Below, piece after piece: positions 5,762 through 24,016 of a stretch of DNA of 64,000 nucleotides. This stretch comes from an uncultured Acidimicrobiia bacterium (GTDB lineage Bacteria > Actinomycetota > Acidimicrobiia > Spongiisociales > JAENVV01), in NCBI GenBank assembly GCA_964614585.1, contig CAZTLW010000001.1, positions 4 to 64,003 on the forward strand. The letters are read 5' to 3'. Both the position numbers and the translations under genes were made by a program. The notes under the pieces were generated by a model that worked only from the letters and a program-made list of their open reading frames with translations, searched no databases and was not told the DNA's origin. Position 1 is the stretch's first letter. Every line of letters begins with the position of its first letter.

Positions 5762-5790
5762 GACCGAGGATCGTTGGTCCCGCCCGATCG

Positions 5791-6731: not shown

Positions 6732-6780
6732 GGCCCGGCGAGGGTACCCGTCCGCCGGCGCTGCACCGCCCCGGAGCGCC

Positions 6781-6915: not shown

Positions 6916-6918
6916 GGT

Positions 6919-7935: not shown

Positions 7936-8426
7936 AGCTCGATCACCTCGCCGGCGATGTCCGCCGGTTCCCGGCCCGTCGTGGTCACCCGGTGGTGGGC
8001 GGCGGCCTCGTAGAGCGGGGCCCGGCGGGCGAGGAGGTCGCCGAGACTGCCCTCGACGTCGTCGTCGGCCAGCAGCGGGCGTCCCTCGCCGGCACCCACC
8101 CGGTCGGCGAGGTCGCCGGTGGCGGCGGTGAGCCACACGACATCGCCGGAGGCCCGCATGTGCTCGACGGAGGCCGGGTCGAGGACGACGCCGCCGCCGG
8201 TGGAGACCACGACGTCCCCCCCGTCGGCCGCGAGCTCGGCCACCACGGCCGCCTCGAACAACCGGAACGTGGGCTCCCCGACGGTCTCGAAGAGGCGGTT
8301 GATCGACGAGTCCGATCGGCGTTCGATCTCGGCATCGGTGTCCACGTGGCGGAGGCCGGTGGCGGCGGCGACGGCCTCACCGACGGCCGACTTGCCCACC
8401 CCCATCATCCCGACCAGCCAGATCAT
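7920..8426 (-). CDS. aroK: shikimate kinase AroK
   Basis: MIWLVGMMGVGKSAVGEAV (P-loop) ...VVSTGGGVV. 168 aa at the C-terminal end of ORF 7920..9677. Its ATG overlaps the aroC stop by 1 nt. Confidence 0.85.
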   Translation of the reverse strand: MIWLVGMMGVGKSAVGEAVAAATGLRHVDTDAEIERRSDSSINRLFETVGEPTFRLFEAAVVAELAADGGDVVVSTGGGVVLDPASVEHMRASGDVVWLTAATGDLADRVGAGEGRPLLADDDVEGSLGDLLARRAPLYEAAAHHRVTTTGREPADIAGEVIELCRPR

Positions 8427-9580
8427 CAGAACGCAGCGACCCGGGCCCGGTACCGATCGACGGCGGCGACCACGTCGTCGACGGTGTCGCCGCCGAACAT
8501 CCGCAGGACCTCGTCGGCCAAGGTGATGGCAACGACCTGCTCGGCCACGACGCCCGCCCGGGGCACCGCGCAGACGTCGCTGCGCTCCCGGAAGGCGACG
8601 TCCGGTTCCTTCGTCGCCACGTCGACGGTGCGCAACGGACGCATGACGGTGGAGATCGGCTTCATGGCCGCCCGCACCCGCAGGGGCTCCCCGGTGGTCA
8701 TGCCGCCCTCGGTGCCGCCCGACCGGTTGGTGGCCCGGGCGAACCCGTCGCCGTCGGGGAGGATCTCGTCGTGGGCCGCCGACCCGCGCCGGCGCGCCGT
8801 CTCGAAGCCGTCGCCGATCTCGACCCCCTTGATGGCCTGGATCGACATGAGGGCGGCCGCGAGGCGGGCGTCGATCTTGCGGTCCCAGTGCACGTGGCTG
8901 CCGAGACCGGGCGGCAGGCCGTGGACGACCACCTCCACGACACCGCCCAACGTGTCGCGATCGGCCTTGGCGGCGTCGATTGCCGCCACCATCGCCGCCG
9001 AGGAGTCGGGGTCGAGGCACCGCACCGGGTCGTCGTCGATCGCGTCCTGACTTCCCCGCTCGGGCACCAGTTCGCCGGGTGCGGTCACGTCGCCGATGGC
9101 GACGACATGGCCGAGGATCTCGACGTCGATCGCGGCGAGCAGTTGGCGGGCGATGAGGCCGACCACCGTTCGGGCGGCGGTCTCGCGGGCCGACGCCCGC
9201 TCGAGGATGTCCCGGGCGTCGTGGGTGTCGTACTTCTGCATCCCGACGAGGTCGGCATGGCCGGGACGGGGTGCCGTCAGGGTCCGGCGGGCCTCGCCGC
9301 CGGGATGGGGGGACATGTCCTGCTCCCAGCGCGGCCACTCGGTGTTGCGGACCAGGACGGCCACCGGGGAGCCCAGCGTGCGGCCGAAGCGGACCCCACC
9401 GAGGATCTCCAACTCGTCGCGTTCGAGCTTCATCCGGTTGCCGCGACCGTGGCCGAGGCGCCGCCGGGCCAGTTGGTGGGCGAGGCCGTCGACGGTCACC
9501 TCGAGACCGGCAGGGACGCCCTCGACGATGGCGACGAGTCCGGGCCCGTGCGATTCGCCGGCGGTGAGGTAGCGAAGCAT
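8426..9580 (-). CDS. aroC: chorismate synthase AroC
   Basis: 384 aa, MLRYLTAGESHGPGLVAIVEGVPAGL...GRSSARETA-like motifs. aroC-aroK-aroB order as in actinobacteria. Confidence 0.92.
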   Translation of the reverse strand: MLRYLTAGESHGPGLVAIVEGVPAGLEVTVDGLAHQLARRRLGHGRGNRMKLERDELEILGGVRFGRTLGSPVAVLVRNTEWPRWEQDMSPHPGGEARRTLTAPRPGHADLVGMQKYDTHDARDILERASARETAARTVVGLIARQLLAAIDVEILGHVVAIGDVTAPGELVPERGSQDAIDDDPVRCLDPDSSAAMVAAIDAAKADRDTLGGVVEVVVHGLPPGLGSHVHWDRKIDARLAAALMSIQAIKGVEIGDGFETARRRGSAAHDEILPDGDGFARATNRSGGTEGGMTTGEPLRVRAAMKPISTVMRPLRTVDVATKEPDVAFRERSDVCAVPRAGVVAEQVVAITLADEVLRMFGGDTVDDVVAAVDRYRARVAAF

Positions 9581-9642
9581 CCGCCGCAGGATAGGGGCCG
9601 GGTCGCACCTGCCCCGGGCTCGACGCGTACGCTGGCCGGGCC

Positions 9643-10998
9643 ATGGCCCACACCGTCGAGGACCTCCCGGCCGCCAAGCAGGCGGCCTATGCCATCGGCC
9701 AGCTCGGCTGGTCGACCCTCATCAACATCGTCGGCGTCTCGCTCGTCTACTTCTACCTGCCCCCTGAGGCGGCCGGACTCCCCCAACTGATCACCGGGGT
9801 GACGTTCCTCGGCGTGCTCAATGCGATCACGCTCATCGCCGCCTCCGGCCGGCTCCTCGACGCCGTCACCGACCCATGGATCGCCGGGCTCAGCGACCGG
9901 TCGACGAACCCACGCGGCCGTCGGATCCCGTTCATGGCCCGGGGCGCCCTGCCCGCCGCGGTGTTCCTGGTGCTCATGTTCACCCCACCGGTCGGCGAGG
10001 TGTCGGGCTGGAACATCGTGTGGCTCGTGGTCGTCCAGGCCGCGTTCTACGTCTCGCTGACCGTCTACGTGACGCCGTTCTTCGCCCTGCTGCCCGAGAT
10101 GGGCCACACCCCCGAGCAGCGCCTCAACCTCAGCACGTGGATCTCCATCACGTTCGCCCTGGGCATCATCCTCGCCGGGCTGGTGCCGGCGATCGCCGAC
10201 GCGGTGGGCACCGGGCTGGGACTCGAACCCCTGCGGGCGTTCCAGGTGGCGATCGGGGGGTTGGCGCTGCTGGCCGTCATCTGCATGTTCGTCCCGGTGC
10301 TGGCCATCGACGAGCGCCGCTACTCCACCGGCCGACCGAGCACGGTCCCGCTGCTGGAGGCCATCCGGGCGACCTTCGCCAACCTGCAGTTCCGCCGGTT
10401 CATCGTCTCGGACTTCGCCTACTTCACCGGGCTCACGATCGTGCAGACCGGTCTCCTGTTCTACGTCACCGTGCTGCTGGGCCAGGAGGAGGCGCTGGTG
10501 GCCACCCTGCTGGCGCTGTTGGTCATCGTGTCGTTCGTCTTCTATCCGATCGTCAACCTCCTCGCCCGCCGAACCGGCAAGAAGCCGCTCATGGTCGGGG
10601 CCTTCGTCTGGATGTCACTCGTCTTTCTCGCCGTCCCCCTGCTGGGCGCCGAGGCGGTCCCGGCCCTCGCCCAGGCCTACCTGTTGGTCCTGCTGCTCTC
10701 GGTGCCCCTGGCCTTCCTCGGGGTGTTGCCCAACGCGGTGCTCGCCGACATCGCCGAGTTCGACGCCAACGAGACGGGCGAGCCCCGGGAGGGCATGTTC
10801 TTCGCGTCCCGCACCCTCATGCAGAAGTTCGGCCAGACGTTCGGGGTGATGAGTTTCGCCATGCTCACCAGCCTCGGTCGCGACGTCGGCGACGACCTGG
10901 GCATCCGCCTGTCGGGCGTCGTCGGCTTCGCCCTGTGCGCCGTCGCCGCCGTGGTCTTCGCCCGCTACGACGAGGCGACGACGACGGCTCGGTCATGA
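9643..10998 (+). CDS. MFS transporter, GPH (glycoside-pentoside-hexuronide:cation symporter)-like
   Basis: 451 aa, ~12 predicted TM segments, MelB-like N-terminus ([16 protein letters not shown]...). Divergent from aroC across a 62-bp intergenic region. Confidence 0.75.
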
Positions 10999-11750
10999 CC
11001 GAGCTCCTCGACCCCCTGGCCGCCGGGTTCCGCCTCGACGGCGACCGCAACGAGGCGGTGGTGCTGCTCCATGGCTTCACCGGCGTGCCCGCCCACTTCC
11101 GGCCGCTGGCGGGCGACCTGCACGAGGCCGGGTACACGGTGATCGTGCCCAGGCTCGCCGGCCACGGCACGTCGATGGAGGACATGGACCGCACCGGCGC
11201 CGACGACTGGATCGAGAGCGCCACCGCCGCCTACGAGGAGGCGGCGGCCGACAAGGCCCTCGTCCACCTCGGCGGCCTCTCGATGGGCGGCCTCATCTCC
11301 ATCCTGCTCGCCGCCCGGCTGCCGGTGGCGTCCGTGACGACCATCGACAGCCCGGTCGTCGTGCGCGATCCGCGCAGCTACGTGGCGCCCCTGTTCGCCC
11401 GGTGGATGCCCGAGATCCGCTGGGAGGAGGAGCAACTCGACCTCGACCCCGAGGTGGAGCCCTATTGGCTGACCTACCCGGGCTTTCCGACCCGCCGGCT
11501 CGGCGATCTCAATCGCATCATCGGCCGAGCGCTCCTGGCCGCCCGCCGGGTGGACGTCCCCGCCCTCGTCATCCAGTCGAGGACCGACGAGACGGTGGCC
11601 TCGATCAGCGCCCGCATCCTCGCCAACGCCTTCACCGGTGACACCCGCCTCGTCTGGCTCGAACGGTCCATGCACAACGCCCTGCTGGACCGGGAACGGG
11701 ACGTGATCTCGGCGGCCGTCCGATCCCACCTGGCGGACGCCGCTCCATGA
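10995..11750 (+). CDS. alpha/beta hydrolase (carboxylesterase / lysophospholipase-like)
   Basis: [12 protein letters not shown]...VVLLHGFTG...HLGGLSMGG (GxSxG nucleophile elbow). Its ATG overlaps the MFS stop (ATGA). It is the C-terminal part of ORF 9876..11750, whose N-terminal region is an out-of-frame artefact. Confidence 0.8.
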
Positions 11751-11777
11751 CCGAGGCCCCGGGGCATCGCCCCGGGG
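11749..11777. terminator. bidirectional intrinsic terminator-like hairpin between convergent genes
   Basis: gaggccccgggg-catcg-ccccggggcctc: 12-bp GC stem with a 5-nt loop, immediately after the hydrolase stop. A second hairpin ggccgg-tgaag-ccggcc follows at ~11804-11820. Confidence 0.6.
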
Positions 11778-11822
11778 CCTCGTCTCGATACTCGGTACTC
11801 GGTACGGCCGGTGAAGCCGGCC

Positions 11823-12353
11823 TCACTTCAGGATCGACTGCCCGACACTCGCTTCGAAGGTGTTGTCCCCGAACTGGAACACACCCGAGGCGGTCGACCC
11901 GTCATCGGACGGGGTGAGCGAGACGACCTTGAAGTTGCCGGCGAAGGTGTCGCCGACCCCGACGGTGTACTCGACGTTGTCGACCTGTACGACCGCCCGG
12001 GGCACGCCGTCCACCTCATTGACGGACACGAGCCCGAAGGTCAGGCGGTCGCCGGGGTCGGTGGCGCCACCGTCACCGCCATCCGACACGAGTGGTCGGA
12101 ACGGGTCGCGTGGCTGGGCCACCTGGATCGACGTCGAGATCCGGACGCCTTCGCTGAGCGCCGCCGCCGGGGCGGCATCGGCCACCACCGTCTCGGCGTA
12201 CGCCCCGTCGAGGTTCCCGATCGCGGGGGTGTCGGCGCCCAGGACCGTCGGGGCGACGGCCCACCAGGCGGCGGCGAATCCGACCCCGATCAGGAGGATG
12301 GCGAGGGCTGTCGCCAGACCCGAGCGAGGCCGAGGGTTTGCATGCGCTGCCAT
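11823..12353 (-). CDS. pilP: PilP-like type IV pilus assembly protein
   Basis: MAAHANPRPRSGLATALAILLIGVGFAAAWW (signal anchor) ...RDPFRP (PilP-type motif). ATG sits immediately after the pilO stop and is the last gene of pilMNOP. The Arg/Pro-rich N-terminal extension of the ORF was rejected. Confidence 0.6.
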   Translation of the reverse strand: MAAHANPRPRSGLATALAILLIGVGFAAAWWAVAPTVLGADTPAIGNLDGAYAETVVADAAPAAALSEGVRISTSIQVAQPRDPFRPLVSDGGDGGATDPGDRLTFGLVSVNEVDGVPRAVVQVDNVEYTVGVGDTFAGNFKVVSLTPSDDGSTASGVFQFGDNTFEASVGQSILK

Positions 12354-12354
12354 C

Positions 12355-13041
12355 TCAGCCTCCATTCGTTTCCGCCGAGGCACCCTCGGCTTCGTCGACG
12401 GCGTCCTCCGTGTCGGAGGTGGCGTCGTCGGTGGGCGGATCGGCGTCGGACATGCCGTCCCCGCCCGTCCCGAGATCGCCTCCGGGCACGTCGACGACCG
12501 GTGCCGCAATGTCACCCGTGGTGAACGCCGTCGCCTGGATCGTCACGGTGAGCTCGACCGTGTTGTCCTCCACGGCCGGCGAGAACGCCGCCGAGTCCAG
12601 ACGGATCAGCCGGTCGAGGTCCTCCATGCCATACAGGTAGCCGAGGAGCTCGAAGTACTGGCCGGTCACCGAGACCGTCGTCTGGATTTCGTTGTAGCCG
12701 CCCTCGTCGTTCGGCGCCGGGGTGCCGAACGACGCCCCGTTCCAGGTGACGGCCGATTCCGTCGCCAGCGTCTCGAGGGCATTGATGAGCTCGCTCTGGG
12801 ATGGGCTCGCCGGGATCGACGCCTCGAGCTCGCCGACGGCGTCGATGTATTGGAGCTCGGCCTCCTGGATGCGGAGCAGCTCATTGCGCTCGGCGGTCAG
12901 CGCCGCCTCCCGCTGCTGTTCCGACTCCGTCTGGGCGGCGATCTCGTTGGTGTTGTCGATGATCGGGGAGATCACGAGGAACCAGAACCCGGCGGCGACG
13001 AGGATCGCCAGCAGGGTCCCGAGTAGCAGTCGGGCTCTCAT
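12355..13041 (-). CDS. pilO: PilO-like type IV pilus assembly protein
   Basis: MRARLLLGTLLAILVAAGFWFLVISP (single TM), coiled-coil region, acidic C-terminus. Position between pilN and pilP. Internal ATG at 13041 abuts the pilN stop. Confidence 0.7.
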   Translation of the reverse strand: MRARLLLGTLLAILVAAGFWFLVISPIIDNTNEIAAQTESEQQREAALTAERNELLRIQEAELQYIDAVGELEASIPASPSQSELINALETLATESAVTWNGASFGTPAPNDEGGYNEIQTTVSVTGQYFELLGYLYGMEDLDRLIRLDSAAFSPAVEDNTVELTVTIQATAFTTGDIAAPVVDVPGGDLGTGGDGMSDADPPTDDATSDTEDAVDEAEGASAETNGG

Positions 13042-13664
13042 TCGGCCACCTCCGGGATCCGGGTCTCGGCCCGGTCGGACAGGGCCCCACCGGTGATCGA
13101 GGTCGTCAGGTTCCAGGCGACGAGGCTCGCCTCGTCGTCCTCGTTCTGGAGCACGGATGCGGCCCAGGCCCCGGTCACCGAGTCCCAGTCCTGGGAGTCG
13201 AGGGTGAGGAGCCACGACGAGACGTCCGGGTAGTCGAACCCGGAGCCGGCCATGGCGACGCCGCCATAGACGCCGGGCGCCTCCTCGGTCGGGACCCCGG
13301 CGGTGATCGACAGCGACTCCATCCAGACCCGCTTGTCGGAGATCATCCGGCCGAAGTCGCCCAGCAGGCGGCCCCAGGCGACGTCTGCCGCCAGGGCGTG
13401 CCGGACGCGGTCGGCGCCCTGGTCGTAGTCATCACGGAGTTCCCGATAGGGCTCGAGTGCGGCGATCTCCGCCTGGAGTTGGGCGTTCTGGGCCACCTGG
13501 GCGTCGTACTCGGCCTGGGCCGTTGTCTCCTGGCCCTTGAAGAACATGAACACGGCGCCGAGGAGGGCGAGGTAGGCGATGGCCACGAAGGCCGTGCCGA
13601 TCCACCCTCGCCGGGCCTTCTGGGCCTCGGCTCGCTCCTGGGGCAGCAGGTTGATCTTCGACAT
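13038..13664 (-). CDS. pilN: PilN-like type IV pilus (fimbrial) assembly protein
   Basis: MSKINLLPQERAE... INLLP hallmark plus TM helix. Its ATG overlaps the pilM stop (ATGA); an alternative start 5 codons upstream is possible. Confidence 0.75.
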   Translation of the reverse strand: MSKINLLPQERAEAQKARRGWIGTAFVAIAYLALLGAVFMFFKGQETTAQAEYDAQVAQNAQLQAEIAALEPYRELRDDYDQGADRVRHALAADVAWGRLLGDFGRMISDKRVWMESLSITAGVPTEEAPGVYGGVAMAGSGFDYPDVSSWLLTLDSQDWDSVTGAWAASVLQNEDDEASLVAWNLTTSITGGALSDRAETRIPEVAE

Positions 13665-14746
13665 CAGACGAGCCCCCATTCGGCCAGGCCCACCGCCACC
13701 GGCAGCACCGGCTGGGCATGGGCGAGTTGTTCGTCGCTCAACCCCGTCTTGCCGACCTGGACGGACTCCCCCAACAGCTTCACCGGTGTGACGGGCATGT
13801 CGAGGGCCATCCCCATCCGGGTGGCGAGGTGTGGGAGTCGGGCAGCGTTGCCGCTGATCATGAGTTCGCCGACGGCGGCGTCGGCCGACGAGGAGTTGTA
13901 GAACTCCAGCGTCCCGCGAATCTCCTCGATCAACTGGGCCGCCTGTTCGGTGAGGATGTCGCGGGCCCGGTCGTCGGGCATGGACGACGCACCGAAGACG
14001 GCGCCCGGGTCGGCGTGGACGCCCACCCGCCGCTTGACCTCCTCGGCCTCCTCGGGAGCGATCCCGAGTCCGGTCGACAGTGCCCGGGTCATGTCGTTGC
14101 CGCCGATCGGGATGAGGCGCAGGAAGCGGAGAGTGCCGTCCTTGGTGACGATCACCTGGGTCATCCCGGCGCCGAGACTGACGACCGCCTGGGGGGCGTC
14201 CCCGAGCGGGATCCGGGCCCCGAACACCGATCGCACGAGGGCGAACGCCTGCAGGTCGACCGCGTCGACGCGGACACCGGCGGACTCGACGACGCCGAGG
14301 AACTGGTCGATCATCTCCCGTTGGGCGGCGACGACGAGGATGGCCCGTCGGGACTCCTCACCCTCGCCGCCGGGGATGTCCTCGAGCGGCACGAAGTCGA
14401 GGATCGCGTCCTCGGTCGCCATGGGGATGTGCTCGCCGACGTGCTGGGGCAGCGAAGCCCGGAGGGCCTCGTCGCTCATGTCGGGGACCTCCACCCGGCG
14501 GACGATGATCCGCTGGTTGGCGAGTCCCATGACGACGCCCTTCTTGGGTAGCTTCGACGACTTCCAGAGGCGCGAGACGGCGTCCGCCACCACGGCCGGG
14601 TCGACGATCTCACCGCCTTCCACGGCCCCCTTGGGGAGGCCGACCTCCCCGTACTTGCGGAGCACGGGGGCGCCCTTCTTGCCTCCTTGCAGCACGGCAG
14701 CCCTTACGGCGCTCGTGCCGATGTCGAGGCCGACTGTGGCAGTCAT
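13664..14746 (-). CDS. pilM: type IV pilus assembly protein PilM (actin-like ATPase fold)
   Basis: 360 aa, MTATVGLDIGTSAVRAAVL... PilM/FtsA-like family. Heads a pilMNOP operon with overlapping stops and starts. Confidence 0.85.
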   Translation of the reverse strand: MTATVGLDIGTSAVRAAVLQGGKKGAPVLRKYGEVGLPKGAVEGGEIVDPAVVADAVSRLWKSSKLPKKGVVMGLANQRIIVRRVEVPDMSDEALRASLPQHVGEHIPMATEDAILDFVPLEDIPGGEGEESRRAILVVAAQREMIDQFLGVVESAGVRVDAVDLQAFALVRSVFGARIPLGDAPQAVVSLGAGMTQVIVTKDGTLRFLRLIPIGGNDMTRALSTGLGIAPEEAEEVKRRVGVHADPGAVFGASSMPDDRARDILTEQAAQLIEEIRGTLEFYNSSSADAAVGELMISGNAARLPHLATRMGMALDMPVTPVKLLGESVQVGKTGLSDEQLAHAQPVLPVAVGLAEWGLV

Positions 14747-14882
14747 GCCCTCCTCCTGGGTTCGGTCGCGTTCAGGGTCACACGGCTCCGTACATGGGTG
14801 TAATTACCGTTCTGTGATTTCGGAGCGTAGTGGGTGGGTCCGATCGCACCAACGATCGGGGACCCGGCGTCGCGGGATCCGC
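14747..14882 (-). promoter_or_regulatory. putative pilMNOP promoter / 5' leader; also holds a hairpin after the pilD stop
   Basis: Comparatively AT-richer tract gtgtaattaccgttctgtgatttcgg. SD aggaggag precedes the pilM ATG on the minus strand. Hairpin ccgatcg-ttggtg-cgatcgg lies just downstream of the pilD stop. Confidence 0.35.
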
Positions 14883-15695
14883 TCAGCCGAGATAGAGGTC
14901 GAGGAGCTCCGTGCCCGCCACGGTCGCCACCCATGCGGCGACGATCATCGGCGGCCCGAAGGCGAGGTGGTCCTTGCGGCCCCGCCGGCGCAACACCAGC
15001 AGCACGATCGCCGCCAACCCGCCGATCAGGAACGAACCGAATATCGCCACGCCCACCGAGCCGAGCGCTTCGAGCGCTCCCACGGTCGGCTGGCGCACCT
15101 GGAAGGCCACGAAGAGGCCCAACAGGAACGAGAGCTTCACGTCCCCGAAGCCGAAGCCGCCCGGTACCGCGAGGGCCAGGACGAGCATCACCGCGAAGTA
15201 GAGCGCTGCCCCGGCGAAGGCCCACCCCAGCCGGTCGGCGGTCGTCGAGGCGAACGACCCGGCCACCAGCAGCAGCGTCGCCACCACGGTCCCCGGGTAG
15301 ACGATGCGATTCGGCAGTCGGTGCGTGTCCAGGTCGGTGAGGATCAGCGCCACCGTCATCGAGAGCGCCCAGAGGTGGGCGGGCAGCTCCCAGCGGAAGC
15401 CGATGAGCAGCGTCGCCGCCGCCCACAGCAGGCCGGTCGCCAACTCGACCGCCGGGTAGCGCCACGAGATCGGCGCCCGGCAGTGACGGCACTTCCCCAC
15501 CAACAACAACCAGCCGACCACCGGCAGCAGGTCGATCGGCCCGATCGCGTGACCGCAGGCGGGACAATGGGAGCGTCCCATCACCGAGCGGCCGAGCGGG
15601 ATCCGGTAGGCCACCACGTTCACGAACGAGCCGGTCGCCAGGCCGAAGAGGCCCATCGCCGTCGGCCAGAACCAGAGGGGCAGGTCGGCGGTCAT
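14883..15695 (-). CDS. pilD: prepilin peptidase PilD (A24 family aspartic peptidase / N-methyltransferase)
   Basis: 270 aa, N-terminal CPACGH...CRHCRAPI zinc-binding cysteines, multiple TM helices, GFGDVKL-type motif. Confidence 0.85.
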   Translation of the reverse strand: MTADLPLWFWPTAMGLFGLATGSFVNVVAYRIPLGRSVMGRSHCPACGHAIGPIDLLPVVGWLLLVGKCRHCRAPISWRYPAVELATGLLWAAATLLIGFRWELPAHLWALSMTVALILTDLDTHRLPNRIVYPGTVVATLLLVAGSFASTTADRLGWAFAGAALYFAVMLVLALAVPGGFGFGDVKLSFLLGLFVAFQVRQPTVGALEALGSVGVAIFGSFLIGGLAAIVLLVLRRRGRKDHLAFGPPMIVAAWVATVAGTELLDLYLG

Positions 15696-15907
15696 CGGCC
15701 GCGCACCCTAGGGGGGCGTCCGGTCGCGCCGACGCCTTTGGGTCGGTCGTCGCCGTGGTCGCCTCGAGGTCGTGGTGGTGCATGCGTTCCGCTCATTCGC
15801 CGGGCCTCCCAACCCACGAGTGGGTATCGGAGCAAGTCGCGAAACCTTGAGGAGGAACCCTGCCGGGCAGGACTGCGGAACCGCACGACCACCGAGCTCG
15901 GGTCTCG

Positions 15908-15958
15908 GCGGCCCGGGGCAACCGCCAGACGCGAACCGCCCCGGGCCGGTTGGCCCGG
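15908..15958 (-). terminator. intrinsic terminator-like GC hairpin(s) downstream of pilA1
   Basis: cggcccgggg...ccccgggccg 10-bp stem, and ccgggcc-ggtt-ggcccgg perfect 7-bp stem, within 100 nt after the pilA1 stop. Confidence 0.5.
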
Positions 15959-16002
15959 GGCGAGTTCCGTGGTCCCGTGGTTCCGCGGTTCGAGTCGTGT
16001 CG

Positions 16003-16476
16003 CTAGTCCCATCCGCCGACGCACTCGGCGAGGGTGTCGAGCGACGCTCCTCCGGTGAGCGACCGGCCGAAGCGGGTGCCGGTGTTGGAACCGCTCACCT
16101 CGTCGGCGAGGCAGTACCACTCACCCGACTCACTGGCGGTCAGGAAGATGACTGCCTGGTCGGCGGTGCCATCGGTGTTCGGCAGGATCAGGAAGCCGAC
16201 CTGGTCGTCGGCCGGGGCATTGCCGGCCACGAACTCGAGGTTGGCGTGGACGTCGTCGAGGTCGGCGACGGCGAAGCCGTAGTCCTCCTCGTCGGTGTAG
16301 TAGACGCGGGCGGCGGTGAGCGCATTTCGCAAGTCGCTCTGGGCCGACCGGTCCTGGGCTCGGACGCGGGCTCCAAGGAAGACCGGGATGGCGATCGCCA
16401 GGAGAATGGCGATGATCAGGACGACCACCATCAACTCGATCAGCGTGAAGCCCTCGTCCCGCTTGATGCGGGCCAT
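16003..16476 (-). CDS. pilA: type IV major pilin (PilA-type), prepilin with class III signal peptide
   Basis: MARIKRDEG|FTLIELMVVVLIIAILLAIAIP: prepilin cleavage/methylation motif (G-FTLIE). C-terminal Cys pair (disulfide loop). 157 aa. Confidence 0.9.
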   Translation of the reverse strand: MARIKRDEGFTLIELMVVVLIIAILLAIAIPVFLGARVRAQDRSAQSDLRNALTAARVYYTDEEDYGFAVADLDDVHANLEFVAGNAPADDQVGFLILPNTDGTADQAVIFLTASESGEWYCLADEVSGSNTGTRFGRSLTGGASLDTLAECVGGWD

Positions 16477-16548
16477 GGGTTCCCCTCACTCTGGGTTGTC
16501 GAAGTGACCATCGGCCGTGGCGGCCGATTCCTTTAGCCCGAACGCGTC

Positions 16549-16576
16549 GAGGGCGGGGGCCGAAGCCCCCGCCCTC
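16549..16576 (-). terminator. intrinsic terminator hairpin after pilA2
   Basis: gagggcgggggc-cgaa-gcccccgccctc: perfect 12-bp GC stem with a 4-nt loop, 25 nt downstream of the pilA2 stop. Confidence 0.65.
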
Positions 16577-16600
16577 GGACGGTCTAGCTGATGGGTCGGA

Positions 16601-17101
16601 CTACCAGGAGGCGCCGTTGCACTCGCCGGCGGTGTCGACATCGACGAGTGCCGTCTCGCTCGAGGCGAAGAACGTGCCGGAACCGGCACCGGTCGCCGTC
16701 TCGTTGATGCAGAACCAGGTCCCCGACGCCGACTGCTTGGCGAAGGTGATCTGCTGGCGATCGGTACCGGCAACGCTCTCGACCGCATAGCCGACGTTGT
16801 CGGCATCGGACGCAGCGATGGCCACGAACTGCAGGCTCGGCTCGATCGCCTCGAGCTGGGCCACGGTGACGTCGGCCCCAGCGCCGTCCGAGAAGTCCTC
16901 GGTGTCCGTGTAGTGCACCTTCGCCGCCGTGAGGGCGTTCCGAAGGTCCGACTGGGCGGCCCGGTCCTGGGCACGCTCACGGGCACCGAGGAAGGTCGGG
17001 ATGGCGATGGCAATCAGGATGGCGATGATGAGCACCACGACCATCAGCTCGATGAGGGTGAAGCCCTCATCCTTCTTCAGCTGGTTGCGGATCCACGACA
17101 T
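16601..17101 (-). CDS. pilA: type IV pilin paralog (PilA-type), prepilin
   Basis: MSWIRNQLKKDEG|FTLIELMVVVLIIAILIAIAIP... N-terminal 40 aa nearly identical to pilA1, with a C-terminal Cys pair. ~166 aa at the C-terminal end of ORF 16601..17887; the rest of that ORF is antisense to pilC and was rejected. Confidence 0.88.
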   Translation of the reverse strand: MSWIRNQLKKDEGFTLIELMVVVLIIAILIAIAIPTFLGARERAQDRAAQSDLRNALTAAKVHYTDTEDFSDGAGADVTVAQLEAIEPSLQFVAIAASDADNVGYAVESVAGTDRQQITFAKQSASGTWFCINETATGAGSGTFFASSETALVDVDTAGECNGASW

Positions 17102-17343
17102 GTTGTCGTACTCCTTTGTTTGCGTATGGGCGTTGGCGCCCCTTCTCCGATGGTGGATATCGGGGCCGGAGCGCCGGTTCTTGAGGACTTTTCTTCGACG
17201 CTCCGTGGTCGAAGGACCACGCAGCAACCCGACGCGAGACCACGGGATCCGGCATGGGCGCCGGTACCCGATACCCGAGACCGCGCCACGCGCCGGGGCC
17301 CCGACCGATCGGCCGGGGCCCCGTCCGTCGCAGGCGCCAGCGC
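17102..17343 (-). promoter_or_regulatory. pilA2 promoter / leader region (242-bp intergenic)
   Basis: Largest intergenic gap in the pil cluster. SD aggag lies 7 nt before the pilA2 ATG. A separate terminator after pilA2 implies independent, probably high-level transcription of the pilins. Confidence 0.4.
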
Positions 17344-18567
17344 CTACTGGACCAGGTTGACGATGTTGAACATCGGCAGGTAGAGGGCGATGAGCATGCC
17401 GCCGACCACGCCGCCGAGCACCACGATGAGGAGCGGCTCGATGAGGCTCGTGAGCCCCTCGACCATCGTCTCGACCTCGTTGTCGTAGAACTCGCCGATC
17501 TTCTCGAGCATCGTGTCGAGGGCGCCGGTCTCCTCGCCGACGGCCACCATCTGGACGACCATCGGCGGGAAGATCTTCCGCTCGGCCATCGGCTTGGCGA
17601 TCGACTCGCCCTCCGAGACCGAGGCCCGGGAGGCCATCACGGCTTCCTCGACCACGGCGTTGCCCGAGGTCTCCGCCACGATCTCCATGGCCTGGAGGAT
17701 CGGGACACCGCTCTTGGTGAGGGCGGCCATCGTCTGGGCGAATCGGGCGAGTGCGGACTTGTGGATGAGCTTGCCGAAGATGGGCATGCGGAGCTTGATG
17801 CTGTCCCAGGCGTAGCGGCCGCCCTCGGTCTGCTTCCACCGCCGGAACACGACCCAACTCACGATCCCACCGAGGACGGCGACCCACCAGAACGAGGTGA
17901 GGAAGCCCGAGATGGCCAGCAGGATCTGGGTGGGCACCGGCAGCGACGCCCCACCGAGGTCGGCGTAGAGGCCGTCGAACATCGGGACGATGAAGATGAG
18001 CATGGCGGCGGTGATCAGCACCACGAGCACCGCCACGGCCATCGGGTACATCATCGCCGAGCGGATCTTGTTCTTCAGCGCAACCTGGGCCTCGAGCGTG
18101 TCGGCGAGGCGGAGCAGGGAGTCGTCGAGGAGGCCGCCCGTCTCGCCGGATCGCACCATCGAGACGTAGAGCTTGCTGAACACCTTCGGGTGGGCCTCGA
18201 GGGCCTGGCTGAGGCTCTTGCCCTGCTCCACGTCCGTCTTCACGCCGAGGATCACCTCGGCGAGTGTCGTGTTCTCGGTCTGCTCGGCGAGGATCGAGAG
18301 CGCCCGCAGCAGCGAGAGACCCGACGCGATCATCGTGGCGAACTGGCGGCTGAAGACCGCCACCTCCTTGGCGGCCACCCGGTCGGTGATCCCGGGGATG
18401 CGGACCTCGCCGCTCAGCCCCGCCGCATCGGTCTCCTCGAGGGTGACCGGCTTGAGCCCCTTCTGGGCGAGCTCGCGGGCGGCCGCCTCGGCGTTGACGG
18501 CCGACACCTTCCCGTTCTTGACCCGGCCCTTGTCGTCCTGGGCCTTGTAGGCGTATGTCGTGGCCAT
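17344..18567 (-). CDS. pilC: type IV pilus inner-membrane platform protein PilC (GspF family)
   Basis: 407 aa, two GspF-type repeats, ...MMYPMAVAVLVVLITAAML...PILQAMEIVAETSGN... Confidence 0.9.
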   Translation of the reverse strand: MATTYAYKAQDDKGRVKNGKVSAVNAEAAARELAQKGLKPVTLEETDAAGLSGEVRIPGITDRVAAKEVAVFSRQFATMIASGLSLLRALSILAEQTENTTLAEVILGVKTDVEQGKSLSQALEAHPKVFSKLYVSMVRSGETGGLLDDSLLRLADTLEAQVALKNKIRSAMMYPMAVAVLVVLITAAMLIFIVPMFDGLYADLGGASLPVPTQILLAISGFLTSFWWVAVLGGIVSWVVFRRWKQTEGGRYAWDSIKLRMPIFGKLIHKSALARFAQTMAALTKSGVPILQAMEIVAETSGNAVVEEAVMASRASVSEGESIAKPMAERKIFPPMVVQMVAVGEETGALDTMLEKIGEFYDNEVETMVEGLTSLIEPLLIVVLGGVVGGMLIALYLPMFNIVNLVQ

Positions 18568-18577
18568 GGGCTACCTC

Positions 18578-20170
18578 CTAGGCGACGCGTCCGAGCAGGC
18601 GCCGCAGGTCCTCGATGTTGGTGCAGCGCTCGACTGCGGTGTCGAAGTCGATGACGTTCTGGCGGACCAGGTGCGCGAGCGACTGGTCCATCGTCTGCAT
18701 GCCGTGCTTGCCGCCGGCCTGCATCGCGGTGGTGATCTGGTGGATCTTCGCCTCCCGGATGAGGTTCCGGATCGCCGGCGTCGCCAGCATCACCTCGGTC
18801 GCCACCGCCCGCGAGCGGCGGTCACGCGTGGGCAGGAGCTGCTGGGTGACGATCGCCTGGATCGTCGCGGCCAACTGGACCCGCACCTGCGACTGCTGGT
18901 GGCTGGGGAACACGTCGATGATCCGGTCGATCGACTGGGGGGCGTCCTGGGTGTGCAGGGTGGCGAACACGAGGTGGCCGGTCTCGGCGGCGGTCAGCGC
19001 GGTCTGGATCGTCTCGAGGTCGCGCATCTCGCCCACGAGGATCACGTCGGGGTCCTGGCGCAGGGCGTGCTTGAGGGCGGCGCCGAAGTCCATGGTGTCC
19101 GCACCCACCTCGCGCTGGTTCACCAGCGCCCGCTTGTGGGTGTGGACGAACTCGATCGGGTCCTCGATCGTGAGGATGTGGCACGACCGCCGCAGGTTGA
19201 TCTGGTCGATGATCGATGCCAAGGTCGTCGACTTGCCCGAACCGGTCGGCCCGGTGACGAGCACGAGCCCGCGGGGATACTCGGCAAACCCGTCGAGCAC
19301 CTTCGGGAGGCCGAGCTCCCCGAGCGGCTTGACCACCTCGGGGATGGCCCGGAAGACGGCGCCGACGGCGTCGCGCTGGAAGAAGACGTTCATCCGGAAG
19401 CGGGCATGGCCGGGCACGGGGTGGGAAGCGTCGAGTTCGAGCGTGTTCTCCAGCGTCTCGCGCTGCTTCTCGGTGAGGATCGAGTAGATCATGGCCCGCA
19501 ACTCGGCCGGGGTGAGGACGTCGTAGTCCTCCAGCGCCGTGAGGTGCCCATTGATGCGCACGATCGGCTTGGTGCCGGCGGTCAGGTGCAGGTCGGAGCC
19601 GGCCCGTTCGAGCAACTCGAGGAGCAGCGTGTTCGGATGGACCCGGGGGATCTCGTCCTGGCGGGCCGCGGCGATGCGTTCGGCGTCCCCGCCGACCCCG
19701 GGGGGGAGTTCGACGCCGAAGATCCCGTCGATCGCCTTCTCGATGGCTCGCGCCGGGGCGACGGCGACCCGGATGCCACACCCGGCCCGTGCCTCCACCC
19801 GGTCGAGGACCTCCTCGTCGTAGGGGTCGGCGACGGCCACCTTCAGCTCGTTGCCGACCATCTCGATCGGCACGACCTGGAGGGCGCGGCAGGTGTCGGC
19901 GTCGAGGCGGTGGACGATGTCGGGGGCGAAGATGATGCCCTCGAGGTCGACGTACTCGAGGCCCACCCGGGCGGCGAAGACCCGGACGAGGTCCGCCTCG
20001 AGCACCAGGCCCTCGGAGACGACGAGCTCGTCGAACGAGGTGCCGGTCTCCTCCTCGAGGGCGAGCAGTCGCTCGAGTTGGTCGCGCGAGAGGAGACGCT
20101 GGTCGACCAGCAGTTCGCCGAGGGTTCGTGAGTGGTTCGCCATGTCCCGTTGCTCCTTCGTCCGTACCAA
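18578..20170 (-). CDS. pilT: twitching-motility retraction ATPase PilT with N-terminal MshEN/T2SSE_N-like domain
   Basis: C-terminal region carries Walker A GPTGSGKSTT, IEDPIEF, and AIRNLIREAK (PilT/PilU signature). The N-terminal ~170 aa has tandem RTLGELLVDQRLLSRDQLERLL / FDELVVSEGLVLEADLVRVFAARVGL motifs resembling MshEN. Start may be the ATG at 20143. Confidence 0.85.
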   Translation of the reverse strand: MVRTKEQRDMANHSRTLGELLVDQRLLSRDQLERLLALEEETGTSFDELVVSEGLVLEADLVRVFAARVGLEYVDLEGIIFAPDIVHRLDADTCRALQVVPIEMVGNELKVAVADPYDEEVLDRVEARAGCGIRVAVAPARAIEKAIDGIFGVELPPGVGGDAERIAAARQDEIPRVHPNTLLLELLERAGSDLHLTAGTKPIVRINGHLTALEDYDVLTPAELRAMIYSILTEKQRETLENTLELDASHPVPGHARFRMNVFFQRDAVGAVFRAIPEVVKPLGELGLPKVLDGFAEYPRGLVLVTGPTGSGKSTTLASIIDQINLRRSCHILTIEDPIEFVHTHKRALVNQREVGADTMDFGAALKHALRQDPDVILVGEMRDLETIQTALTAAETGHLVFATLHTQDAPQSIDRIIDVFPSHQQSQVRVQLAATIQAIVTQQLLPTRDRRSRAVATEVMLATPAIRNLIREAKIHQITTAMQAGGKHGMQTMDQSLAHLVRQNVIDFDTAVERCTNIEDLRRLLGRVA

Positions 20171-20216
20171 GTGTCGGTCGCCGAGTCGCCTACCTTGAGG
20201 GGCGACTCCGGCCGAC

Positions 20217-21899
20217 TCAGACCGTGACCCGGAGGACCTCCTCGAGGCTGGTGTCGCCCGCGGCCACCTTGCGGAGCCCGTCGACGCGCAGCGGCGTCAT
20301 GCCCTGCTCGAGCGCCTTGTGGGTGAGCGCCTCCGTGGTGGCGTGCTGGACCACCATCCGCTCCACGTCCTCGGTCATCGTCATGAGTTCGTGCACCGCC
20401 ATGCGTCCCCGGTAGCCGGTGCCGGCGCACGCCGTGCAACCCACCGCCCGAAAGATGGTGGCGTTCCCGCCGGGGTCGACCACGGCCGGGTCCCACCCGA
20501 TGCGGTCCAGGGCGTCCTGGGTGGGCTCGTGCGGCTCCTTGCACTTCGTGCACAGGCGCCGGGCGAGGCGCTGGGCGAGCACGGCGTCGAGCGCCGACCC
20601 CACGAGGAACGGCTCCACGCCCATCTCGATGAGGCGGCTGACGGCGGCAGGCGCCGTGTTGGTGTGGAGGGTCGACAGCACCAGGTGACCGGTCAGCGCC
20701 GATTCGATGGCGATGTTGGCCGTCTCGAGGTCCCGGATCTCGCCCACCAGCATGATGTCGGGGTCCTGGCGGAGGAAGGAGCGGAGGGCGTTGGCGAAGC
20801 CGAGCCCCGCCTTGCGGTTGACCTGCACCTGGTTGACACCGGCGAGCCGGTACTCGACGGGGTCCTCCACGGTGACGATGTTGCGCTCGGCGTCGTTGAG
20901 CACGTTGAGGGTGGCGTACAGCGTCGTCGACTTGCCGGAGCCGGTGGGGCCGCACACGAGGATCGTGCCGTAGGGCCGGCGAAACGCGTCCTGGTAGCGC
21001 TCGAGGTTGTCGTGGTGGAAGCCGAGATCGGTGAGGTCCAGCATTGCCGTCGAGTTGTCGAGGATCCGCATGACGACCTTCTCCCCGTAGATCGTGGGGA
21101 GGGTGGAGACACGGAGGTCGACCGACCCGCTGGGGGTCTTCACCGAGATGCGGCCGTCCTGGGGACGACGACGCTCGGCGATGTCGATGTCGGCCATGAT
21201 CTTCAGGCGGGACACCACCCCGGCGAGGAGCCGGCGATTGGTGCGCATCACCTCGTGGAGCACACCGTCGATTCGGTAGCGGACGCGGACGTCGTGGTCG
21301 CCGGGCTCGACGTGGATGTCGGAGGCGCCATCGCTCACTGCTTTGAGGATCACCTGGTTGACGAACTTGACGATCGGGGCGTCCGCGGACGCGGCCTCGA
21401 CCGCGGCCAGGTCCTCCACGTCGATGCCGTCCTCCGACGACCCGACGAAGTCGCTGACGGCGTCCTCGAGCGAACCGAGGCGCTTCACGACCGCATCGAT
21501 GTCGGGCTTCATCGCCACGTGCAGGTCGATCGATCGCCCGGTGGCGGCCTGGATGTCGTCCTTGGCGAGGATGTCGTAGGGGTTGGCGGTGGCGACGAGC
21601 AGCTTCTCGCCGTCGAAGGCGTAGGGGATCGCCTGGTGCTTGCGAGCCAACGGCTCCGGCAGGAGGGCGGCGGCAGCGGGGTCGACGGTGATCTCGCCGA
21701 GGTCGACGAACTGGTAGCCCATGTGCTTGGCGATGACCCGAACGAGCGTCTTCTCGTCGACCAACGACTCCGCCACGACGTACTTGGACAGGGTCATGCC
21801 TGCCGTCTCGGCCGCGTCGGCGGCCGAGTACAACTGGTCGTAGGTGAGCAGGCCCTCCTCGATGAGGACGGCTGCGACACCGGCCTGTTCCTCGGTCAT
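20217..21899 (-). CDS. pilB: type IV pilus assembly (extension) ATPase PilB (GspE family)
   Basis: 560 aa, N-terminal T2SSE_N-like region (LIEEGLLTYDQLYSAADAAETAG), Walker A GPTGSGKSTT, VEDPVEY, tetracysteine CTKC...CTAC motif. Confidence 0.9.
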   Translation of the reverse strand: MTEEQAGVAAVLIEEGLLTYDQLYSAADAAETAGMTLSKYVVAESLVDEKTLVRVIAKHMGYQFVDLGEITVDPAAAALLPEPLARKHQAIPYAFDGEKLLVATANPYDILAKDDIQAATGRSIDLHVAMKPDIDAVVKRLGSLEDAVSDFVGSSEDGIDVEDLAAVEAASADAPIVKFVNQVILKAVSDGASDIHVEPGDHDVRVRYRIDGVLHEVMRTNRRLLAGVVSRLKIMADIDIAERRRPQDGRISVKTPSGSVDLRVSTLPTIYGEKVVMRILDNSTAMLDLTDLGFHHDNLERYQDAFRRPYGTILVCGPTGSGKSTTLYATLNVLNDAERNIVTVEDPVEYRLAGVNQVQVNRKAGLGFANALRSFLRQDPDIMLVGEIRDLETANIAIESALTGHLVLSTLHTNTAPAAVSRLIEMGVEPFLVGSALDAVLAQRLARRLCTKCKEPHEPTQDALDRIGWDPAVVDPGGNATIFRAVGCTACAGTGYRGRMAVHELMTMTEDVERMVVQHATTEALTHKALEQGMTPLRVDGLRKVAAGDTSLEEVLRVTV

Positions 21900-21927
21900 C
21901 GTCGTTCTCCCCAGCCCGGCCCCGGCG

Positions 21928-23190
21928 TCAGTCGCCGAGGGAGCTCAGTTCCTTGGCGAGGAGGCCCTTGGAGCGTCGCCTGAGCAGGTTCGGCAGGCCC
22001 CCGTTGGACTCTTCCTCGACGGCGGGTTCGTCGTCGGCGTCCCCGTCGTCGTCGACGGGCTCGTCGGCGGGCTCGTCGGCGGGCTCGTCCGCGTCCCCGT
22101 CGGCGTCCCCGTCGACCGCCTCGGCGTACTCGCCGGAGGCATCGTCGTCGACGCCCAGTTGAGCGAGCGCGTCCTCTTCGTGCATGGCCGCCACGTCGTC
22201 GTCGATCTCGTCGAGGGCCTCGTCCTGGTCGTCCTCGTCGTCGGCCCGGATGCCGGGCTTGGGGGCGTAGCCCTTGAGGCCGAAGTCGACGCCGGAGTCC
22301 TCGTCGCCGTCGCCCGCCCCTTCTGCGAGCGGGAAGGGCTCGGCGTCCATCAACGGCGGCTCCTCCTCGGGTTCCGGCTCGTCGGTGGCGGCGATGGACA
22401 CCAACTCGTTGGTCCAACCGGTGGGCCCCTCGGCCGACAGCGGGTCCTCGTCGACCTCGACGCCGGGGAACCGGTCCAACCCGCCGGTGGCCCGGCCGGC
22501 CCGGACGTTGTCGCCGACCCAGGCCAGCCCGCGGCTCACGAACGCGGCGACCTTGGAAGCGGCGTCGAACTCGCTCTCGCCGGTGTGCGACGACAGGCGC
22601 TTGACGGTGGTCCCCGACGCGATGAGGCCGAGCAGGGACCATTCGTCCTGGTTCAGCTCGACGAACTCGCTGCCCTCGGGCAGGCTCTCGGCGAGGTGGA
22701 TGCGGGCCGTCATGGACGGCACGATCTCGCGGATGGCGTTCCAGGCCCGGAGCCGCTCGTCGACCTCGTCGAGGGTGTCGTCGATGGAGAGTTCGGTGCC
22801 GAGGCGGATCGAGGTGGTGACGCCCTCCTCGAACTCGAACGAGCCCTGGCGGCGGCGCATGATCTCGACGAAGGCGTCGACCGTGAGGGAGCGGACGGCT
22901 CGGTCGTAGTCGAGCGGCGAGACCTCGTCCGTGAGGAGCTCGTCGGCCGACACGTCACCCGAGGAGACCTGCTCCCAGCCGTCCCGGTCCAACAACCCCC
23001 CACCGACGAGGCGGGACTTCACGGCCCGCTCGTCGCCCGCGCAGGCGAACAGCAGTCGACCGCCCTGCAAGTAGGCCCGCATCTCCTGGTCATCCGCCTT
23101 CACGAGCAACAGGCCCGTCTGTCCCGAGCGGCCGAGCAGGCGCAGGACCTCGGGCAGGGGGAATGAATCCAGGGTGCCCGACAACGCCAT
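21928..23190 (-). CDS. DUF4388 (PATAN-like) domain protein with long acidic C-terminal tail
   Basis: N-terminus MALSGTLDSFPLPEVLRLLGRSGQTGLLLV matches the DUF4388 signature. The C-terminal ~150 aa is extremely D/E-rich. First gene of the pil cluster. Confidence 0.7.
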   Translation of the reverse strand: MALSGTLDSFPLPEVLRLLGRSGQTGLLLVKADDQEMRAYLQGGRLLFACAGDERAVKSRLVGGGLLDRDGWEQVSSGDVSADELLTDEVSPLDYDRAVRSLTVDAFVEIMRRRQGSFEFEEGVTTSIRLGTELSIDDTLDEVDERLRAWNAIREIVPSMTARIHLAESLPEGSEFVELNQDEWSLLGLIASGTTVKRLSSHTGESEFDAASKVAAFVSRGLAWVGDNVRAGRATGGLDRFPGVEVDEDPLSAEGPTGWTNELVSIAATDEPEPEEEPPLMDAEPFPLAEGAGDGDEDSGVDFGLKGYAPKPGIRADDEDDQDEALDEIDDDVAAMHEEDALAQLGVDDDASGEYAEAVDGDADGDADEPADEPADEPVDDDGDADDEPAVEEESNGGLPNLLRRRSKGLLAKELSSLGD

Positions 23191-23230
23191 CGGTTTGAAC
23201 CTCCTTGTCTAGGAGGTGAATCGGCCTCGC

Positions 23231-24016
23231 TCAGGAGCCCCTTGAGTGCTTTGCCGCGGCGGCCATCGCCTCGACGGGCGGCTCGGCAGCGAACCAGAGG
23301 GCGAACGCGGCTGCGGCCTGGCCGACGAGCATGTCGAGCCCCCAACCGATGGGGAGGCCGTTGGCTCGGGCGCGGCTGACGGCCGGCGTCACCTCGGGTG
23401 CGTAGACCATCTCGAACAGGCCGGCAGCCTCTTCCACGACCCCGTCGGGCAGGTCGTCGCCGGCCATCCCGATCGGGGTCGCGTTGACGACGACAGCACC
23501 GGTGAGTGGCTCACCCCACGCCAGTGCGCCGGCCGCTCCCAGCGAGTCGAGGGCCGCGGCGGCCTCGGGGCGGCGGGCGGCCACCCAGACCTCGTGCCGG
23601 CCGGCGAGGACGTCCACCGCCGCGCGAGCCGCTCCCCCGGCCCCAAGGACCAGCACCGGGGCGTCGATGGGCAGCCCACCCCTCGCCCAGGCGTGCAGCA
23701 CGCCCGCGCCGTCGGTGGCGTGGCCGACGACCCGACCGCCGTCGACGTCGAGGGTGTTGAGCGCCCCCAGCCGCGCCGCCACCGGGTCGAGGCGGTCGAC
23801 GAGGCCGACGGCGGCGGACTTGTGGGGCATGGTCACGTTGGCCCCGTCCAGACGCCCTCGACGCAGGTCCTCGATGGCGGCGGCGAGCCCGGCGGGGTCG
23901 ACGTCGCGACGGCCGTAGGTGGCGTCGAGGTCCAACTCGGCGTAGGCGGCCTCGTGGATGGCGGGTGACAGGGAGTGGGCGACCGGATGGCCGAGGACGA
24001 CGAACCGCCGGGTCAC
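23231..24016 (-). CDS. aroE: shikimate dehydrogenase AroE
   Basis: 261 aa, MTRRFVVLGHPVAHSLSPAIHEAAY...NVTMPHK...VLGAGGAARA. Confidence 0.9.
   Translation of the reverse strand: MTRRFVVLGHPVAHSLSPAIHEAAYAELDLDATYGRRDVDPAGLAAAIEDLRRGRLDGANVTMPHKSAAVGLVDRLDPVAARLGALNTLDVDGGRVVGHATDGAGVLHAWARGGLPIDAPVLVLGAGGAARAAVDVLAGRHEVWVAARRPEAAAALDSLGAAGALAWGEPLTGAVVVNATPIGMAGDDLPDGVVEEAAGLFEMVYAPEVTPAVSRARANGLPIGWGLDMLVGQAAAAFALWFAAEPPVEAMAAAAKHSRGS

Follow-up and report, generated by a model that had tools for sequence, protein, structure and literature searches.

The minus strand of a 64,000-nucleotide stretch of an uncultured Acidimicrobiia bacterium (contig CAZTLW010000001.1, G+C ~70 %; hereafter the window, meaning the whole stretch) encodes a complete type IVa pilus operon, arranged PATAN-pilB-pilT-pilC-pilins-pilD-pilMNO according to the list of open reading frames (ORFs) and to profile searches (Table 1). 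Two adjacent genes of this operon encode the predicted extension ATPase PilB and the ATPase PilT, and the latter carries an N-terminal domain of the GSPII/MshEN type, which makes it an apparently undescribed variant of the PilT architecture. The initial annotation of this locus, read from the letters alone, had correctly placed two ATPase genes at 18578-21899; it proposed that both proteins have MshEN-like N-domains with binding motifs for cyclic dimeric guanosine monophosphate (c-di-GMP), and that the messenger controls both the extension and the retraction of the pilus.

The first possible start of the pilT ORF is a TTG at position 20170, which gives the 530 residues of the initial annotation. 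Translation most likely begins further in, at the ATG at 20143, giving 521 residues, because a Shine-Dalgarno sequence lies 9 nt upstream of it and a database protein that is 100 % identical to the window PilT (P0001) is also 521 residues long. Residue numbers of PilT given here follow the 530-residue numbering. The protein is a genuine member of the PilT family, both by the TIGR01420 (pilT_fam) profile, which matches residues 181–518 with 476.8 bits (cutoff 319.1), and by its motifs: Walker A (GPTGSGKST, residue 307), the Asp box (EDPIE, 336), Walker B (DPDVILVGEMRD, 373), the His box (TGHLVFATLHT, 397) and the AIRNLIRE signature (466). A search of the PilT sequence for the PilB-type tetracysteine (CxxC...CxxC) found none, and a retraction function is predicted. 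The catalytic boxes, the AIRNLIRE signature, the lack of a zinc tetracysteine, a core score above the cutoff and the placement of the gene between pilB and pilC are shared with the canonical PilT and PilU of P. aeruginosa and V. cholerae (~345–370 residues); the window protein differs from these in ~170 extra N-terminal residues, which form a full GSPII/MshEN domain and a linker. Published accounts describe PilT as a protein of ~345–370 residues without an N-terminal GSPII/N1D domain (PMC11656802, PMC4624772), a description from which the 521-residue window protein departs on both counts. In the literature searched, we found no description of a PilT with an MshEN, GSPII or T2SSE_N domain.

Profile searches support the MshEN-like N-domains proposed for both ATPases. 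The MshEN profile PF05157 (cutoff 23.1 bits) matched residues 70–154 of PilT with 60.6 bits and residues 61–146 of PilB with 66.9 bits. Using phmmer against PDB sequences, PilT residues 13–150 matched all three GSPII domains found in PilF of Thermus (best E = 2e-27), and the same region also matched Geobacter PilB and V. cholerae MshEN (5htl), with E-values up to 6e-10. The AlphaFold2 (AF2) model of the PilT N-domain, with a predicted local distance difference test (pLDDT) score of 89, consists of helices at 2–14, 20–33, 37–43 and 49–60 followed by an alpha/beta part. It has the MshEN fold, superposing on MshEN (5HTL) and PilF GSPII-B (8PDK) with target-normalized template modelling (TM) scores of 0.72–0.73 in Foldseek. 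At E <1e-3, Foldseek retrieved GSPII/MshEN structures only, with 9g1w, 5htl and 8pdk as top matches, and the C-terminal subdomain also resembles the GspL-binding N1E domain of GspE (4pht, 2bh1; Foldseek probability 0.90–0.94). Given the phmmer matches and the superposition of the AF2 model, the likeness of the PilT N-domain to MshEN is due to homology and not to chance.

The partner ATPase is probably a PilB, by several signs. TIGR02538 is its top-scoring model, with a full-length match of 645.6 bits, just below the cutoff of 675.65; T2SSE scores 468 bits, and the tetracysteine CTKC...CTAC is present. We considered that the PilT N-domain could have arisen by duplication of the N-domain encoded in the adjacent pilB and found this origin unsupported, since the N-domain of its own PilB (34 % identical, 65 bits) is no closer to it than those of PilBs from unrelated phyla (60–70 bits). 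Across the orthologue clusters, the PilT N-domain evolves faster than the core, with a median identity to the window protein of 42 % vs 72 %.

Table 1. Features of the pilus motor region (window positions; all on the minus strand)
Feature	Positions	Strand	Evidence
PATAN/DUF4388 (PatA_N) protein, 420 aa, highly acidic low-complexity tail	21928..23190	-	PF14332 59.3 bits
pilB, 560 aa, extension ATPase	20217..21899	-	TIGR02538, T2SSE, tetracysteine, PF05157
PilB N-terminal MshEN/GSPII domain	21462..21899	-	PF05157 66.9 bits; NF053729 21.7 bits
Shine-Dalgarno sequence GAAGGAG, 9 nt upstream of the ATG at 20143	20153..20159	-	Sequence read
pilT, 521 aa from the ATG at 20143 (530 aa from the TTG at 20170)	18578..20143	-	TIGR01420, P0001, Shine-Dalgarno context
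PilT N-terminal MshEN/GSPII (N1D-type) domain, residues 10-152: four-helix bundle, then alpha/beta subdomain	19715..20143	-	PF05157, phmmer, AF2/Foldseek
PilT motif I equivalent, residues 16-39, TLGELLVDQRLLSRDQLERLLALE; deviant positions 1 (T), 10 (R) and 24 (E)	20054..20125	-	Homology alignment
PilT motif II equivalent, residues 45-68, SFDELVVSEGLVLEADLVRVFAAR; S at position 1, D at position 3 (Gly needed)	19967..20038	-	Homology alignment
Flexible linker between N-domain and PilT core, ~residues 155-172	19655..19708	-	Full-length AF2, model residues 146-163 with pLDDT <50
PilT ATPase core	18578..19630	-	Walker A, Asp box, Walker B, His box, PilT signature; TIGR01420
pilC platform gene	17344..18567	-	T2SSF 222 bits

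Ligand-contact positions of the two N-domains

The c-di-GMP-binding pattern of MshEN domains is the sequence RLGxx(L/V/I)(L/V/I)xxG(L/V/I)(L/V/I)xxxxLxxxLxxQ, present twice in tandem with five residues between the copies (Wang 2016, PMC5013675), and the motif criteria used here were drawn from that study and from PMC11731258. Several positions of the pattern have been probed by mutation. In MshE, G11L/I and G40I abolish binding (PMC5013675), and XpsE lost binding through substitutions of that kind (Wang 2016). A need for R9 was found as well (Roelofs 2015, PMC4624772). Neissner 2024 widened position 1 to R/K/L and identified the GSPII-A domain of PilF as a non-binder. Its motif II reads S39-L-A41...R62; here the Ser at position 1 is by itself enough to abolish binding, an Ala replacing the Gly of position 3 costs 10–30 fold, and Gln is needed at position 24 (Neissner 2025, PMC12002112). 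Exchange of Gln for Glu causes a ~100 fold loss at pH 8.5 (PMC12207366).

Aligned in the homology register, motif I of the window PilT reads T16-L-G-EL-LV-DQ-R25-LL-SRDQ-L-ERL-L-AL-E39 and motif II reads S45-F-D47-EL-VV-SE-G-LV-LEAD-L-VRV-F-AA-R68. The geometry of the tandem repeat is kept, with residues 16–39 and 45–68 separated by a five-residue spacer (40–44). The motif strings pointed out in the initial annotation are present (PilT 15–36 and 46–71; PilB 12–34), but they do not match the c-di-GMP-binding pattern. Their register was also off by one: PilT has an extra residue, R-T-L-G instead of the R-L-G of the motif, which puts T16 and not R15 at position 1. At position 3, the essential Gly is found in motif I (G18) and is an Asp in motif II (D47). 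Because T16 and D47 are common to the four closest relatives (86–88 % identical), they are fixed features of the lineage and not sequencing errors.

Neither PilT nor PilB matched the strict, the extended or the relaxed published c-di-GMP motif. We scored 11 positions per motif, 22 in total; R68, at motif II position 24, was not counted as a mismatch, since the relaxed motif allows Arg where the strict consensus wants Gln. On this count, PilT has 5 mismatches and PilB 6, compared with 3 in the non-binder PilF GSPII-A. PilF GSPII-C was not used as a control for the count, as it has three motifs and the fragment may lack the binding pair. The profile dedicated to this motif, NCBIfam NF053729 (c-di-GMP_motif, cutoff 38 bits), gave 35.8 bits for PilT and 21.7 bits for PilB, compared with 60–67 bits for c-di-GMP binders and 53.8 bits for GSPII-A. 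Both window proteins therefore fall below the cutoff and far below a proven non-binder, contrary to the c-di-GMP-binding-type motifs first ascribed to them. Considering that this non-binder itself scores above the cutoff, NF053729 over-calls c-di-GMP binding, and annotations that derive from it will over-predict receptors.

In PilB, RLG and Q are replaced by GVA and A within motif I and by TLS and H within motif II, with A9 and S38 at the Gly positions, so that positions 1, 3 and 24 fail in both motifs and account for its 6 mismatches of 22. Its N-domain is an ordinary degenerate PilB N1D and is predicted not to be competent for c-di-GMP. Studies of canonical PilB and GspE with N-domains of this type have shown that these proteins do not bind c-di-GMP, and PilT is tabulated in the literature as 'no binding'.

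Comparison with structurally characterized domains places the PilT N-domain among relatives of differing competence. With the c-di-GMP binders MshE (5HTL) and PilF GSPII-B (8PDK), it shares the two-subdomain fold, 26–30 % identity and the tandem 24-residue repeats, and it retains their five-residue spacer, their leucine clusters and the L-G of motif I; it differs from them in its host ATPase, which is a PilT and not a PilB, and in its alterations, which affect positions 1, 10 and 24 in motif I and positions 1 and 3 in motif II. The best Foldseek match (E = 2e-10) is the non-binder GSPII-A (9G1W), and the motif II of the two proteins is alike (S-L-A...R vs S-F-D...R). However, motif I of GSPII-A is near-perfect where that of the window PilT deviates (T16, R25, E39), and the Gly position of motif II holds Ala in the former and Asp in the latter. 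A third group comprises the N-domains of GspE (N1E), XpsE and X. citri PilB (2d27, 2d28, 7lkm, 4pht, 2bh1), which have the same fold, have likewise lost the c-di-GMP residues and are kept as protein-interaction modules docking GspL or PilZ. These differ from the PilT N-domain in being carried by extension or secretion ATPases.

Distribution of the fusion

All of the 120 best homologue clusters at 90 % identity, which are 55–100 % identical to the window PilT, combine PF05157 with PF00437. Their lengths are 498–551 residues in 116 clusters and 464–485 in the other four, and the organism names given among them are Acidimicrobiia or Acidimicrobiales throughout. The PilT-MshEN fusion is clade-typical, the norm within Acidimicrobiia, and an unfused PilT paralogue is present in addition in one Acidimicrobiia metagenome-assembled genome (MAG). 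The initial annotation had called the fusion of a retraction ATPase to such a domain uncommon and had itself held that it would be unremarkable if orthologues of this length were universal in the clade. With 120 of 120 clusters fused, that is the situation within Acidimicrobiia; across bacteria as a whole, the judgement of an uncommon architecture holds.

None of the 120 orthologues matched the relaxed motif of Wang 2016, and the c-di-GMP-contacting positions of the PilT N-domain are systematically replaced. In motif I, position 10 is always R/K/H and never Gly, and at position 24 a Glu is found in 116 of the 121 sequences aligned, with no Gln in any of them; in motif II, position 3 holds A, S, D, V or P, and none of the 120 orthologues has Gly there. 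The family consensus is roughly SR[KR]LGELLVD[RQ][RH]LLS...L...L..E for motif I and P[LF]A..L[VI]..G[HL]V....L...[VI]..[RQ] for motif II, with conservation reaching 93 % for R15, 100 % for G18 and L21, 98 % for L36 and E39. Judged by the mutational benchmarks, the domain is not expected to take up c-di-GMP in the canonical manner of MshE, and this holds most of all for the sub-lineage that has T16 and D47.

Outside Acidimicrobiia the PilT-MshEN fusion is rare. We sampled GTDB species for PilT loci, of which 80 were among the matches listed (a sample, not a census), and checked for fusion by tblastn. Among these matches, a truly fused PilT outside Acidimicrobiia occurred in one of the 80 loci, in Egicoccus (Nitriliruptoria). 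In this Egicoccus sp. MAG (L002, 5965-7566), the core is 50 % identical to the window PilT, and the N-domain, with 34 %, is no closer to it than generic PilB N-domains are. Its motifs are degenerate too, with a Pro at motif II position 3. Given the low identity of the N-domain, the fusion in Egicoccus may have arisen independently; alternatively, the domain may change very rapidly. Two further loci that seemed to be full-length fusions, in Planctomycetales (L011) and Omnitrophota (L039), were rejected, as they proved to be joined high-scoring segment pairs from a neighbouring gene. The nearest actinobacterial PilTs from outside the class among the matches listed, those of Solirubrobacterales and Rubrobacter (core 61–64 % identical), are unfused.

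An exhaustive search of 1.84 billion representatives detected an MshEN-like N-domain in 18 of the 150 best PilT-type clusters, many of the others being tandem PilT-PilT fusions or having unannotated N-termini. Three clusters have PilT-MshEN proteins with near-intact motifs (P0152, P0262 and P0134), all above the TIGR01420 cutoff. P0152 reads LLGERLLESKLIT..L...L..Q in motif I and MLGKILTDLGFV..L...L..Y in motif II and scores 56.5 bits on NF053729, P0262 has two MshEN domains and scores 100 bits, and P0134 scores 45.8 bits. The gene of P0152 is an orphan pilT beside smc, ~800 nt from a divergent gene encoding a GAF-GGDEF diguanylate cyclase (L082, 4308-5495 (-) and 6286-7881 (+)). These three proteins, rather than the window PilT, are candidates for direct c-di-GMP control of retraction. 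P0149, which at first looked like another near-canonical PilT-MshEN protein, was set aside as ambiguous or chimeric, because the PilB model gives it a higher score than the PilT model (435 vs 390 bits) and its contig is 2.6 kb long.

The tandem PilT-PilT proteins returned by the same search (P0122, P0124 and P0282-P0336) are numerous, ~720–770 residues long and in part labelled Myxococcota or Deltaproteobacteria. They may be real fusions or merged pilT/pilU gene calls.

Possible roles of the PilT N-domain

We think it probable that the window protein is a PilT of the kind usual in its clade, whose tethered N1D-type module serves docking or regulation and has lost the canonical competence for c-di-GMP. 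In such a scheme, the PilT of Acidimicrobiia would have stably acquired a complete GSPII/MshEN domain on a flexible linker, and the domain may act as the N1D of PilB and GspE does, as a tethered module for docking or regulation. It could hold the hexamer in place at PilM/PilC, the platform on the cytoplasmic side, or it could have a binding partner, for instance the PATAN protein encoded next to it, and the extension and retraction motors would then share one kind of handle. The proposal draws on GspE N1E with GspL and on X. citri PilB with PilZ, structures of which are among the fold matches. Some points weigh against it. The suggested docking role is an analogy with the GspE N1E-GspL pair, and the ligand-contact positions of motif I (R15, G18, L21, L36 and E39) are conserved beyond purely structural need, so that a functional pocket of altered chemistry is possible. 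A protonated Glu can still hydrogen-bond the c-di-GMP phosphate (PMC12207366), and typical members of the family, with 38.3 and 38.9 bits, lie exactly at the NF053729 cutoff. Finally, restoring a perfect consensus in GSPII-A did not regain binding (PMC12002112), which means that motif content alone decides neither way.

These points lead to an alternative that we regard as doubtful, in which the PilT N-domain is a nucleotide sensor of altered chemistry that gates retraction, binding c-di-GMP weakly or in a pH-dependent manner via a protonated E39, or binding another cyclic dinucleotide, while PilB is no sensor. The equivalents of the MshE ligand contacts are conserved throughout the family (R15, L17, G18, L32, L36 and hydrophobic residues at 46, 61 and 65), R15 corresponding to the Arg with which MshE, ahead of its motif I, binds phosphate. 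The Pro that opens motif II in the family consensus also occurs there in the c-di-GMP-binding GSPII-C of PilF (Neissner 2024), mutants with Gln replaced by Glu still bind at 0.4–0.8 uM (PMC12207366), and the related fusions with near-intact motifs reach 46–100 bits on NF053729, one of them encoded near a GAF-GGDEF gene. The window PilT, however, has at least five adverse substitutions, including Asp at an essential Gly and Ser at motif II position 1, and lies 18 bits under the proven non-binder. Moreover, no GGDEF, HD-GYP or PilZ signature was detected among the ORFs of at least 150 residues in the 64-kb window, a result that covers the window and not the rest of the genome. A broader form of this idea, which we likewise find unlikely, would make the PilT-GSPII/MshEN ATPases an unrecognized class hidden under the 'MshEN-T2SSE' label, with retraction gated by a small molecule. 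The representatives of that label in the architecture table of Wang are PilB, GspE and MshE proteins only. Members with intact motifs would be true c-di-GMP motors, and the conserved pocket of Acidimicrobiia would be altered in its chemistry (in motif I, a basic position 10 and Glu at position 24; in motif II, Ala or Asp at position 3) yet would still accept a ligand, either c-di-GMP, weakly or depending on pH, or another dinucleotide.

The model of the initial annotation, in which PilB and PilT are both canonical MshEN receptors and the messenger controls extension and retraction alike, is very unlikely, because the PilB N-domain is plainly degenerate. The presence of PF05157 in both proteins and their weak, sub-threshold NF053729 matches agree with it. 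The motif tests contradict it, as R-L-G and Q are missing from both motifs of PilB and PilT fails the motif criteria, and neither the degenerate PilB N1D, of a kind proven not to bind in canonical PilB and GspE, nor the gene content of the window suggests second-messenger control of the two motors. Another explanation, which takes the long PilT for an artefact (a start codon called wrongly, a frameshift, an assembly fusion with a fragment of pilB) or for a decaying remnant, takes up the facts that long spurious ORF extensions arise in high-GC genomes and that many long PilT-family entries in the databases have unannotated N-termini. It is effectively refuted by the conservation of the N-domain, which is found in frame in 120 independent clusters with conserved residues of its own; in the window protein, it is a confidently folded homologous domain behind a proper Shine-Dalgarno sequence and ATG, and it is no closer to the N-domain of the adjacent pilB than to those of PilBs from other phyla.

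Pilus motors are now told apart partly by the N-terminal GSPII domain, which reviews describe as separating extension from retraction ATPases, and the PilT fusion runs against this published generalization. Direct control by c-di-GMP is currently thought to be limited to extension motors; a class-wide PilT-GSPII fusion bears both on the function of N1D and on direct ligand control of retraction. If N1D docks motors to PilM/PilC, the same handle would serve both motors here, which would affect models of motor exchange. The comparison also calls for caution in annotation, given that neither a match to the Pfam MshEN profile nor a visual likeness to RLGxxLL predicts c-di-GMP binding.

Operon surroundings

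As pilC starts 10 nt past pilT, the latter lies inside the operon, and the gene order around pilT is kept in a relative that is 72 % identical (L001, a 1.3-Mb contig). Beyond pilC, the operon continues with two pilin genes, a prepilin peptidase gene, pilM and pilN- and pilO-like genes. A literature search on the pili of Acidimicrobiia returned nothing relevant.

The PATAN protein is encoded directly upstream of pilB, an arrangement also kept in L001, where its N-domain is 51 % identical. Judging from this context, it is probably a motor regulator; in Synechocystis, PATAN regulators bind the PilB motor (bioRxiv 10.1101/2021.06.11.447907). Among the database proteins, one of 1024 residues (P0121) has DUF4388 fused to two PilT domains, and an MshEN-HD-GYP-REC-DUF4388 architecture is among those tabulated in Wang 2016.

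The pilus operon sits within a cluster of shikimate (aro) genes on the minus strand (window ~6900-24000), with aroE upstream and aroC-aroK-aroB downstream. In L001, the pilus operon is embedded among aro genes as well (5698-20185, 72 % identical), and efp and nusB then follow.

The two pilin genes are in tandem on the minus strand (16003-16476 and ~16601-17100). The class III signal and the hydrophobic segment of their products are nearly identical (KRDEGFTLIELMVVVLIIAILLAIAIP and KKDEGFTLIELMVVVLIIAILIAIAIP), and the C-terminal globular parts are divergent.

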